From an uncultured Prolixibacteraceae bacterium (GTDB lineage Bacteria; Bacteroidota; Bacteroidia; Bacteroidales; Prolixibacteraceae), in NCBI GenBank assembly GCA_963747515.1, contig CAVVFN010000009.1, forward strand, positions 234,505-298,504: a DNA stretch of 64,000 nt, in the 5' to 3' direction. Made by a program: the position numbers and the translations under genes. Shown here one piece after another: positions 15,020 through 44,345 of this stretch (its first letter is position 1; every line of letters starts with the position of its first letter). Under the pieces are notes generated by a model. The model searched no databases and was not told the DNA's origin. It worked only from the letters and a program-made list of their open reading frames with translations.

Positions 15020-15251
15020 CACCCAAAGTGCGAAGACTTTTTTTTGTGAATGTGCTGTTGTTTTAAGAGTTTGAATTCTCCTTGTCCCTCTTACTGTTTT
15101 TTGGGTAAATAATAAACTTTCCACAGAATAACATAAAATTTACAACCGGCCACTTCTCATTATAGGCCCAATAATCTTTATGTTTAACCCGAATGCTAAT
15201 CCGTGGCAGAAATCATGAATTTACCTCCAGTAATCCGTATTTAAAACAGAT

Positions 15252-15363
15252 TAAATTCAACCTTAATTCAGTATTAATTCAGTGTTATTTCAGTTTAAAT
15301 TCAATTATAATTGAATTTATATTGAGTTAATATTGAATTTAAATTGAATTTAAATTGAATTTA
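15252..15363. repeat. dyad-symmetric array of 11-bp repeats (5 forward + 5 inverted units), copy 1
   Basis: TCA cores with C at 15258/69/80/91/302 and TGA cores with G at 15313/24/35/46/57; perfect 24-bp palindromic centre TAAATTCAATTATAATTGAATTTA. Confidence 0.85.
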
Positions 15364-15550
15364 CACCGGACCATGTATAGAGAATTATTCCTCATTAGGT
15401 CTGATGTAATTGTTAAGAAATATTGCAGGAGGTAAATGAAAAGGATGTTAATATCCGGGCAACAAACTTTACTTTTTCTTTAATTTTTGTACTAATTATA
15501 TAAAAAATAACTATTTTCGTAAAGTTATTTAATTTTAGTAAAATCCTATA

Positions 15551-41626: not shown

Positions 41627-43009
41627 ATGGCATTAATAAAATCCATTTCAGGAATACGGGGAACAATTGGTGGAAAACCGGGTGAAGGGTTAAGCCCTCT
41701 GGACGTAGTGAAATTTACAGCAGCATATGCTGCCTGGGCAAAAGAAAATGCTGCGGGTAAAAAATTAAAGATAGTGGTAGGCCGCGATGCACGCATTTCA
41801 GGTGAAATGGTGGGCTCTCTTGTGATTGCCACTCTGGTGGGAATGGGTTGTGATGTGGTAAATATCGGACTGGCAACCACTCCAACAACCGAAATTGCCG
41901 TAACAGGCGAACAGGCCGATGGAGGGATAATCTTAACCGCAAGTCATAACCCAAAACAATGGAATGCCTTGAAACTGCTTAATTCCTCCGGAGAATTTTT
42001 AAATGCTGCTGAAGGTGAAAGAGTTCTTTTTCTGGCTGAAACAGAAGATTTTTTGTTTGCGGAAATCGATGAATTGGGGATAATAACTGAAAAAAATTAC
42101 GCTGATACTCATATTCAACAAATACTTGGACTTGATCTGGTCGATAAAAATGCTATAGAAGCTGCCGGTTTCTCTGTGGCTGTTGATGCGGTGAATTCTG
42201 TTGGAGGAATTGTAATGCCTGCTTTATTGAAAGCTTTGGGGGTGAAACATGTGATTGAAATTAATTGCGAGCCCACCGGATATTTTGCACATACACCGGA
42301 ACCCATACCGGAAAACCTGGTTGAAACTTCACAGATTGTCAGTCGCAGTAAGGTTAATTTGGGGTTTGTTGTAGATCCGGATGTTGATCGGCTGGTGGTA
42401 ATCAATGAGGATGGAAGCATGTTTAATGAAGAATATACTTTGGTGGCTGTTTCGGATTATGTTCTTAAAAACACCCCGGGAAACACTGTTTCCAATCTTT
42501 CATCCAGCCGGGCGCTGCGCGATGTTACCGAAAAGTATGGCATGAACTATTTTGCAAGTGCCGTTGGTGAAGTAAATGTGGTTGCCAAAATGAAGGAAAC
42601 CGGAGCCGTTATTGGCGGCGAGGGGAATGGCGGTGTTATTTATCCGGCAAGTCACTATGGCCGCGATGCCCTCGCAGGAGCTGCCCTGTTTCTGAGTCAC
42701 CTGGCTAAAAGTGGGTTGAAGTGTTCGGAACTCCGAAAATCTTATCCCGATTATTTCATTTCGAAAAATAAAATTGAACTCACTCCTTCAATCGATGTGG
42801 ATGCCTTACTGGAAAAGTTGAAAGAAAAATACGCAAACGAACAGATAACCGATATTGATGGCGTGAGAATCGATTTTCCGGAATCGTGGGTGCATTTGCG
42901 TAAGTCAAATACTGAACCCATTATCCGTATATATGCCGAGGCCAGGTCTGAAGCATTGGCCTTTAAACTGGCACAGCAAATTATAAGCGACATTAAAAAT
43001 CTTTATTAA
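41627..43009 (+). CDS. glmM: phosphoglucosamine mutase / phosphohexomutase
   Basis: SISGIRG, TASHNP (phospho-Ser), DPDVDR metal loop, GGEGNGG. Confidence 0.88.
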   Translation: MALIKSISGIRGTIGGKPGEGLSPLDVVKFTAAYAAWAKENAAGKKLKIVVGRDARISGEMVGSLVIATLVGMGCDVVNIGLATTPTTEIAVTGEQADGGIILTASHNPKQWNALKLLNSSGEFLNAAEGERVLFLAETEDFLFAEIDELGIITEKNYADTHIQQILGLDLVDKNAIEAAGFSVAVDAVNSVGGIVMPALLKALGVKHVIEINCEPTGYFAHTPEPIPENLVETSQIVSRSKVNLGFVVDPDVDRLVVINEDGSMFNEEYTLVAVSDYVLKNTPGNTVSNLSSSRALRDVTEKYGMNYFASAVGEVNVVAKMKETGAVIGGEGNGGVIYPASHYGRDALAGAALFLSHLAKSGLKCSELRKSYPDYFISKNKIELTPSIDVDALLEKLKEKYANEQITDIDGVRIDFPESWVHLRKSNTEPIIRIYAEARSEALAFKLAQQIISDIKNLY

Positions 43010-43130
43010 AATTCCAGTTTTAAACATTATCATCATTTTTTAAATACAATCTCCTCCTCAGAAAAAATATCACGGAAGCGGTTTACTTCGATATTTTTAT
43101 AGACGGCTTTACAATATACCAACTATAGGG

Positions 43131-43231
43131 TAAATTCATTTTAAATTCAATGTAAACTCAATGTAAATTCGCATTTAATTGAATTTACATTGAATTTATA
43201 CTGAGTTTACATTGAGTTTATATAGAATTTG
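43131..43231. repeat. dyad-symmetric array of 11-bp repeats (4 forward + 5 inverted units), copy 2
   Basis: TAAATTCATTT TAAATTCAATG TAAACTCAATG TAAATTCGCAT tt AATTGAATTTA CATTGAATTTA TACTGAGTTTA CATTGAGTTTA TATAGAATTTG. Confidence 0.85.
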
Positions 43232-43519
43232 ATCAGGAGTTGGTATCTGTTTTCTATGGTGAGAAGACTCAGAAGAGTTTAGCAGTCATGTAAGAAAGGA
43301 ATCTCAAATACCCCTGGTGGAAATGACCGATAAATCGTCTGCACCTGAAAATTTTATGGATATGCTGCCCGTTCATCAGTAGAATGATGAACTGCAGCTC
43401 ACAGGAAATAATTCTTTGGATTTTTATTATTTTCTTGTTTAGCCATAACTTTATCCTGTCTGGCAATGCAAAGTGCCGGCAATAGAATAAAGCAGATATT
43501 GAATAAAGAAATACGGAAA

Positions 43520-44345
43520 TCAGAAAGTGATGGTATTGGGATTTGGGCCAATCCGGCTGCCCTTATCGAGACGGTCAATTTTTTCCATATCTTCATTACT
43601 TAATTCAAAGTCAAAAATATCGGCATTTGATATTATCCGCTCAGTGAGTAACCGATTTAGGGATGGTTACCACTCCTTTTTGAATATCCCAGCGAAGTAC
43701 AATCTGCACGGGTGTTTTTCCATATTTTGCAGCCAGTGCCTGCAATACAGGGATATTTAATACCCGCCCCTTCATAATCGGGCTCCAGGCTTCCGGCTGG
43801 ATGTTATTACTCTGGCAAAATTCCAGTAAGTCGGGTTGTATAAGTTCCGGATGAAATTCCACCTGGTTAACTGCCGGGATTATTTTGCATTCAGGAAGAA
43901 ATTCCCGGAGGTGGTGGATAAGGAAATTACTTACACCGATGGCTCTTATTTTTTTCTTCTCATACAATTCCTCCATGGCCTTCCATGTTTCAACCGAGCG
44001 TTTTCCTTTTGGCCAGTGAATCAGGTACAGGTCGAGGTAATCGGTCTGAAGTTTATTCAAGCTTTCTTCATAAGCCTGAAAGGTTGAATTATAACCCTGA
44101 TCGCTGTTCCAGACCTTTGATGTAAGAAAAATTTCTTCGCGGGAAATGCCACTTTCGCGGATTGCCTTTCCAACACCTCTTTCATTTTGGTAGGCTGCAG
44201 CTGTATCGATGCTGTGATACCCATGCTCAAGGGCCACCTTAACCGCAGTTTCTACTTCATTGCCCTCTTCGGCACGAAAAACTCCCAATCCAAACCAGGG
44301 CATTTTTACTCCGTTATTTAATGTTGTTGTTGATGAACTGTCCAT
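43520..44345 (-). pseudogene. aldo/keto reductase with a +1 frameshift near the C-terminus (or a sequencing error)
   Basis: AKR motifs IDTA..Y, TSK, DLYLIHWP, IGVSNF, IPKS; the frame stops at 43641 but ERIISNADIFDFELSNEDMEKIDRLD...GPNP continues in the next frame to TGA 43520. Confidence 0.85.

Follow-up and report, generated by a model that had tools for sequence, protein, structure and literature searches.

A genus-restricted, MITE/REP-like dispersed repeat with arms of helically phased 11-bp units, putatively protein-bound, in an uncultured Prolixibacteraceae bacterium

The inverted array at positions 43131-43231 of the window, a stretch of 64,000 nt from an uncultured Prolixibacteraceae bacterium (C9:234505-298504 of the source genome, G000), is one copy of a dispersed repeat that we read as MITE/REP-like and restricted to one genus, with arms that are helically phased arrays, putatively bound by protein as double-stranded DNA. 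We give this reading as a whole a probability of about 55%. REP, MITE and BrickBuilt elements are familiar examples of dispersed intergenic palindromes; the present family differs from them in its body, which is made up wholly of 11-bp units that are in phase with the helix and share one lattice without a break.

Results and Discussion

Architecture of the element and its copies in the source genome

The array consists of four plus five 11-nt units that converge on a centre of 2 nt. In the left arm (43131-43174, plus strand), four units of the TWAAYTCARTN type follow one another as TAAATTCATTT, TAAATTCAATG, TAAACTCAATG and TAAATTCGCAT, with their core C at 43137, 43148, 43159 and 43170. The dyad centre occupies 43175-43176, and the right arm (43177-43231, minus strand) holds five mirrored units (NAYTGARTTWA on the plus strand) that run from AATTGAATTTA to TATAGAATTTG, with core G at 43181, 43192, 43203, 43214 and 43225. 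The innermost C and the innermost G (43170 and 43181) are 11 nt apart, and all C and G cores fall on a single 11-nt lattice. An earlier note on this DNA had described the unit, the 11-nt phase, the dyad geometry and these core positions correctly. The inverted repeat proper is longer than had been described there, extending over 43116-43246 (paired arms 43116-43170 and 43192-43246), because a 14-nt terminal box borders each arm. The left box, TACCAACTATAGGG (43117-43130, plus strand; family consensus TACCTnnTCCGGAT), was delimited with a logo of 64 arm ends, and the right box, ATCAGGAGTTGGTA (43232-43245, minus strand), is its inverted partner, as indicated by both the inverted repeat and the logo. 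The nhmmer envelope of the whole element spans 43108-43251 (C9:277612-277755; 105.8 bits, E 4e-30).

A sister copy of the same family lies in the window at 15233-15382 (C9:249737-249886; 98.8 bits), with arrays of 5 + 5 units at 15252-15363. The local alignment score between the two array regions was 89, and 1000 palindrome-preserving shuffles gave a mean of 21.8 (sd 5.2) and a maximum of 50; the resemblance that had been proposed for the two copies is well beyond that of palindromic shuffles. Their flanks, which had been called unrelated, are so only in part, the terminal box being common to both. The idea that 43131-43231 is the "second copy" of a pair had to be given up: a search of the source genome (assembly of 5.47 Mb, 39.5% G+C) with an nhmmer profile built from 33 full-size copies returned 65 loci, about 45 of them full-size. 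None of the 65 loci falls inside a gene as delimited by a crude ORF caller, and their gene contexts are convergent in 21 cases, tandem in 30 and divergent in 14. The weak nhmmer matches represent two other repeat groups.

The family element is about 145 bp long and is composed of the inverted 14-nt box TACCTnnTCCGGAT, three to five TWAAYTCARTN units per arm and a minimal centre. Within the core family, similarity between copies reaches about 75 nt to either side of the dyad and ends there, and the idea that the element is part of a larger unit was rejected. At the arm ends, conservation stops at position -14, that is, 14 nt outside the first unit (logo, 64 arm ends). At most ends CC is preceded by the dinucleotide TA, which is indistinguishable from the element's own terminus and may simply belong to it, so that a target-site duplication would be putative. 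The element contains no ORF and, being short, non-coding, dispersed and bounded by terminal inverted repeats, it has several of the properties by which MITEs (shorter than about 500 bp) are recognized. In assembly orientation, the right arms fit the consensus slightly better than the left ones (43 vs 22 pattern matches with at most two mismatches; Wilcoxon p = 0.04). We treated this excess as noise, possibly due to chance, because no correlation was seen with gene direction, with GC skew or with the strand of the local genes.

Unit conservation and the phase of the two arms

Conservation within the unit is uneven. Position 1 is T in 86% of the units, A3, A4, T6, C7 and A8 are conserved in 95-98% and T10 in 93%, percentages that are somewhat inflated since units were picked at up to three mismatches to the consensus. 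Two bases alternate at positions 2 (W), 5 (Y) and 9 (R), and position 11 is free. The right-arm G lattice was in phase with the left-arm C lattice in 77 of 78 elements from three species, and, with metagenome copies added, in all of the 93 paired arrays. The distance between the innermost C and the innermost G takes only the values 11, 22 or 33, the number of units changes in steps of 11 nt only, and the 93 arrays contain no phase-breaking indel, though copies differ at about one quarter to one third of their positions. The earlier note had proposed selection on the architecture, and this proposal is borne out by the lattice that is unbroken through the dyad in 93/93 arrays, by the 11-nt steps and by the six unit positions conserved at 93-98%.

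Conservation was also examined in six orthologous pairs from G000 and the congeneric species G002. Identity amounted to 85% at core positions, 67% at variable positions and 48% at position 11, values that are inflated by the tendency of periodic-sequence alignment to favour matches; the four-fold sites of glmM are 59% identical. Orthologous pairs were barely closer to each other than non-orthologous ones (0.76 vs 0.73). Given this small difference and the alignment bias, gene conversion or re-insertion may underlie the conservation of orthologous copies, which could accordingly reflect either of these processes and not selection.

These data bear directly on the rival explanation that the family is a purely selfish MITE, by now inactive and functionless, whose regularity was inherited from a master copy, with gene conversion among the copies. 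We regard this as rather unlikely. The near-equal similarity of orthologous and non-orthologous copies is what would be expected under concerted evolution, and the intergenic position of the copies is equally in line with a selfish element. On the other hand, the copies persist at the same sites with 85% core identity, though the four-fold sites of glmM have fallen to 59%, and neutral decay should blur all positions of the unit to the same degree and add indels of 1-2 nt, whereas no phase-breaking indel is found in 93 arrays.

Distribution among species and occupancy of orthologous sites

For a survey of species we used a degenerate three-unit pattern, whose reversed control gave 0 matches in 41 genomes. 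Between 25 and about 250 matches per genome were obtained in G000, G002, G003, G008, G010 and G011, and a few in G006; there were none in the 15 other congeners, so that the family is present in 6-7 of the 22 congeneric species surveyed. Among 151 genomes from 36 genera of Prolixibacteraceae, it was found in this genus alone, with 1-3 stray matches in one other. The composition of the units also differs between species. In G011, 7 of the 12 exact matches are one identical 30-mer, and C occupies unit position 5 in 31 of the 36 units (86%) of the exact matches, compared to 25-28% in G000. This suggests a recent, species-specific amplification in G011.

Orthologous sites differ in occupancy between species. 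When the flanks of 20 G002 elements were mapped onto G000, about six sites proved to be filled in both genomes, including 15233-15382, and about seven in G002 only. Likewise, 4 of 11 syntenic sites are common to G008 and G000, again including 15233-15382, while the other seven are filled in G008 and empty in G000. At the site in the glmM-reductase interval that is filled in both G011 and G008, the two genes on either side of the G011 element are separated by only 40-60 nt in G014, G018 and G019, three species that lack the family. At alignable filled sites the extra DNA exceeds the element itself (about 193 nt at one G002/G000 site, about 370 nt in G011 vs G018), and among the aligned sites and the metagenome loci no filled/empty pair was alike enough to fix the element ends or a target-site duplication. 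In metagenome contigs, a first pattern gave no match and a second one 95 stretches, 80 of which were fetched as loci. Most of the stretches are ordinary paired elements, and a dozen or so are unrelated one-directional tandem repeats. The sole match in viral contigs, which comes from a giant-virus bin, was discarded as an unrelated tandem repeat that runs in one direction only.

The patchy presence in the genus at about 25 to about 250 matches per genome, the orthologous sites that may be filled or empty, and the species-specific composition of the units, with one 30-mer dominant in G011, are all consistent with a selfish MITE. They speak against a different alternative, in which the copies are non-mobile host sites, either those of a regulon or chromosome-organising ones comparable to parS, matS or Noc-binding sites, that were gained together with their protein. 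The conservation of the units, their strict helical phasing and the retention of copies at orthologous sites would all suit such host sites. Nevertheless, every copy ends in a conserved, inverted terminal box, sister species differ about ten-fold in copy number, G011 contains near-identical recent copies, many sites that are occupied in one species are vacant in another, and the same genome holds several further 11-bp-phased families with other units and other species distributions. The box, the spread of copy numbers, the empty sites and the coexistence of several families are features that one typically sees in repeats that proliferate and not in a set of sites that is fixed, and we therefore consider the host-site explanation very improbable. 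We favour instead the MITE/REP-like dispersed repeat named at the outset, which would have spread by a transposition-like process. Among the functions that had been offered as examples in the earlier note, a protein-loading site and a non-autonomous mobile element fit best with a family that is dispersed, genus-restricted and present at sites that are filled or empty.

Genes at the locus

The element lies between the glmM-type phosphoglucosamine mutase gene (41627-43009, plus strand), whose stop codon is 107 nt upstream, and an aldo-keto reductase gene (43520-44345, minus strand). The glmM product is 89% identical to a protein of a MAG labelled Mariniphaga sp., its remaining best matches are from Prolixibacteraceae, and an exact-protein look-up found no identical glmM protein on record in other assemblies. 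Comparison with orthologues places a frameshift in the reductase gene near 43642-43647, which leaves a 234-aa ORF and a C-terminal remainder in a different frame. In G008 and G011 the reductase orthologues are intact ORFs of 274 aa, followed by a second paralogue that is absent from G000. The array had been placed between the 3' ends of glmM and the reductase gene; the convergent arrangement holds, but the reductase gene is frameshifted and its real 3' end is about 270 nt away.

The glmM-reductase interval contains the element in G000, G008 and G011. In the latter two species its neighbours are an mgsA-like gene on one side and a gene for a Vut_1 transporter on the other, for neither of which an orthologue was found in G000. 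A comparison of window positions 43010-43640 with the G008 and G011 loci indicates that G000 has lost the flanking mgsA-like and Vut_1 genes, whereas the site still holds an element. In G000 the glmM locus resembles a region of decaying genes that surrounds a repeat, the latter having been either retained or re-inserted. That the element is still found here, though the mgsA-like and Vut_1 genes are gone and the reductase gene is frameshifted, is a further point against a purely selfish and inactive MITE.

Folding of the element

The element can be folded into one long hairpin, with an energy of -50.2 kcal/mol as RNA (z -8.95) and -29.7 kcal/mol as DNA (z -8.45). REP elements have been proposed to act as 3' stabilisers that protect transcripts against exonucleases, and the element at 43131-43231 might similarly operate as a hairpin of RNA or of single-stranded DNA, either terminating transcription in both directions or stabilising 3' ends, in this case for the convergent glmM and reductase genes. 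Besides the length and stability of the hairpin, its start at only 107 nt after the glmM stop would agree with such a role, as would the share of convergent contexts (21 of 65, compared to about 15.5% among the gaps of 150 nt or more between genes, or about 3.7 sd above expectation) and a terminator scan that gave one weak internal consensus match within the element (n = 1).

If the hairpin were the functional form, native arms might be expected to suit each other better than foreign ones, yet native hairpins were not stabler than arm-swapped chimeras on either strand. The complementarity of left arms was 0.671 to their own right arm and 0.680 to foreign right arms, and the mean folding energy was -39.5 kcal/mol for native elements and -39.4 kcal/mol for chimeras, the other strand behaving alike; neither the complementarity nor the fold energies revealed covariation between the arms. 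Furthermore, the arms are often unequal by whole units, which would give rise to bulges of 11-22 nt in the hairpin. The stem is AT-rich, about 50 bp long and without a consistent T tract (U tract in a transcript), whereas an intrinsic terminator is recognized by a GC-rich stem followed by a U tract, and a search of the window against Rfam at the gathering score gave 0 matches. As to gene contexts, just 8 of 32 copies in the core family are convergent, 14 of the 65 copies lie between divergent genes, and no strand bias is tied to the direction of the adjoining genes. We dropped the RNA structure as the primary reading because there is no covariation signal on either strand, and we consider it distinctly unlikely. 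The transcript 3'-end structure that had been suggested for the array is disfavoured on the same ground and by the 14 copies located between divergent genes.

A model of protein binding

With the hairpin set aside, the preferred reading is that the element works as double-stranded DNA, and that the hairpin formed by a transcript or a single strand would be a by-product of the inverted arrangement. The uneven conservation of the unit and the phase kept through the dyad point to repeated protein contacts of this kind. The two arms, each composed of a 14-bp terminal box and three to five head-to-tail 11-bp units, converge on the 2-bp centre, an arrangement that places all unit cores on one 11-bp lattice, with a period of about one helical turn. 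In the model that we propose, each turn of the helix would offer one unit to a sequence-specific protein, which would be bound in opposite directions on the left and right arms. This putative protein could be either an enzyme by which the element was copied in the past or a protein of the host that organises its DNA.

It is tempting to speculate further that the arrays may be maintained loading platforms, on which a candidate sequence-specific DNA-binding protein would polymerise from both ends towards the dyad by one subunit per turn, and that they may represent one branch of a Bacteroidota-wide class of arrays phased at 11, 21 and 22 bp. We put this forward as a tentative possibility. If it holds, the sites would co-evolve with their protein in each species, which would account for the change from T to C that G011 shows at unit position 5, and the loading platforms would constitute a new kind of chromosomal cis-element system and not decaying transposon debris.

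Search for a transposase, a parent element or a partner protein

Several candidates for a parent element were considered. Arms separated by a gene were found neither in G000 nor in the fetched loci of its relatives nor in the 80 listed metagenome loci. Elsewhere in G000 the terminal box gave chance matches only, nearly all of them within genes and none at the end of another repeat. Fourteen representative multi-copy repeat regions, chosen from a much longer list, were inspected for an insertion sequence as the parent; the sole real one, an IS4-like element of 1254 nt present in about seven copies, has unrelated ends and was rejected. A transposase of the IS630/Tc1 type (DDE_3), which the flanking TA had suggested, is absent from all family-bearing genomes.

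RAYT-like Y1_Tnp genes occur in 18 of the 22 genomes of the genus, and their presence does not track that of the family. G000 has seven Y1_Tnp (IS200/RAYT-like) matches, six of which are ORFs of about 150-185 aa; matches lie at C1:6245-6589, C5:2121-2465, C11:37699-38040 and C4:14792-16392 (three in tandem). A RAYT partner was rejected after examination of three of these seven matches, none of which is flanked by 11-mer arrays. Two of the three genes have their own inverted repeats of about 40 nt on either side, those of the first being GC-rich and of the CAGGCTGAAAGCCTG type, and the third has a 49-nt satellite in 9 copies upstream. Because two of the three examined genes are accompanied by inverted repeats of their own, G000 probably contains a separate REP/RAYT-type system. 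HU-HIG proteins are not supported as readers of the arrays either: G000 has three weak HU-like matches, and not one of them is adjacent to an array. Among the candidates examined, neither a transposase nor a RAYT nor a binding protein could be linked to the family.

No partition genes were seen beside the elements, the identified neighbours being housekeeping genes (glmM, reductase, mgsA-like and Vut_1). A parC-like centromere would have its iterons beside a parMR-type operon, on a replicon that depends on segregation; this is not the arrangement found here, where 65 copies are spread over the chromosome.

Relation to known repeats and arrays

Correia elements of Neisseria are bacterial MITEs. 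BrickBuilt, a MITE of Porphyromonas gingivalis, is built of spacer-less tandem units and has a one-directional 23-nt minisatellite between its leader and tail (Klein et al., 2015; PMC4596501). The present family shares with both of them that it is short, non-coding and intergenic, occurs in tens of copies in a narrow lineage and has inverted ends; with BrickBuilt it further shares its occurrence in Bacteroidota and tandem units without spacers. Unlike BrickBuilt, its whole body consists of two converging 11-bp arrays on one lattice, and unlike classic MITEs it is associated with no target-site duplication and no parent transposon that we could find.

REP elements are characterised by a GC-rich stem of 20-40 nt, a GTAG or CGTC head and RAYT (TnpA_REP) transposases. 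The family resembles REP, BIME and REPIN sequences in that these are dispersed intergenic palindromes capable of forming hairpins and often kept at the same sites in related genomes (Di Nocera et al., 2013; PMC3733652), and, as for REP/RAYT systems, RAYT-like Y1_Tnp genes exist in G000. By contrast with REP, the element is about 145 bp long, AT-rich and periodic, it has no GTAG or CGTC head, and the Y1_Tnp genes that were examined are flanked by other repeats.

The arms themselves are reminiscent of plasmid loci to which proteins bind in arrays. The parC locus of plasmid R1 comprises two blocks of five 11-bp direct repeats bound by ParR, and the omega protein of pSM19035 binds heptad arrays in direct and inverted orientation; in both the parC and the omega arrays, one protein dimer binds per unit and a co-operative filament is formed. 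Spacer-less short units, four to five units per block, two blocks and an 11-bp period are features that the element has in common with these plasmid arrays. However, the plasmid arrays are single sites beside par or regulatory genes, whereas the element is found in 45-65 chromosomal intergenic copies with a terminal box, and the repeats of R1 are direct whereas the units of the element converge. A second parallel comes from Pho boxes and other sites of the OmpR/PhoB type, in which 7 conserved and 4 variable bp make up 11-bp direct repeats that are bound head to tail. The unit of the element shows the same layout of 7 conserved and 4 free positions per 11 bp along one face of the helix, and by analogy it may be recognized in a similar manner. 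Pho boxes differ from the element in being promoter-proximal, with 2-6 units in one orientation, and they are not bounded dispersed repeats.

Other phased families and repeats in the same genome

The family is one of several with an 11-bp period in G000. Tandem Repeats Finder (TRF) reported 207 period-11 arrays in the whole genome, compared to 42 of period 10, and the former merge into about 100 loci, 99 of which are intergenic. Beside the CAAT-type family treated above, there are sister 11-bp-phased families with the units TAAATTCGTAY, TAAATTCGCTA, TATAAAGCTAG, TAACTTCACAC and GGGGAGTTTA. Converging arrays are seen at most of the period-11 loci listed, and those of the CTAG family likewise keep one lattice across the dyad. 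Several unrelated unit sequences thus share one architecture in the same genome. If all these arrays are read by a single class of protein, that class would be a so far overlooked factor in the organisation of Bacteroidota genomes or in the mobility of their repeats, and the arrays could be used as bait DNA to find it. Otherwise, the family would be a new lineage-specific MITE-like repeat, of interest mainly for annotation and strain typing.

The sister families have some peculiarities of their own. The converging-array family with the unit TATAAAGCTAG has about 25 loci, for example C1:315503, C2:397002, C3:554856, C8:732819 and C10:101706, and it is common to G000 and G003 only. Its arrays are part of a larger non-coding repeat, which measures 400-800 nt depending on how it is delimited and contains long internal direct repeats. 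A converging array of TAAATTCGCTA units lies at C2:437260-437335, with copies at C2:552293, C8:1114417 and C8:1144890, and is followed after about 80-120 nt by a DUF6266 gene (207 aa) that is present in four copies. At C8:1110663-1114266, satellite blocks of 80 nt extend over 3.6 kb and form three arrays with about 21 units in all; they carry internal CCTTCGAAC and AACAACATA sub-repeats, and a lone unit follows the DUF6266 gene at C2:438204-438337. G000 is unusually rich in repeats, and several more families of non-coding or satellite-like repeats, each about 1-3 kb long and present in 7-12 copies, are represented at C10:194051-195064, C10:201141-201992, C8:24998-29603, C11:6522-8396 and C11:23461-26363.
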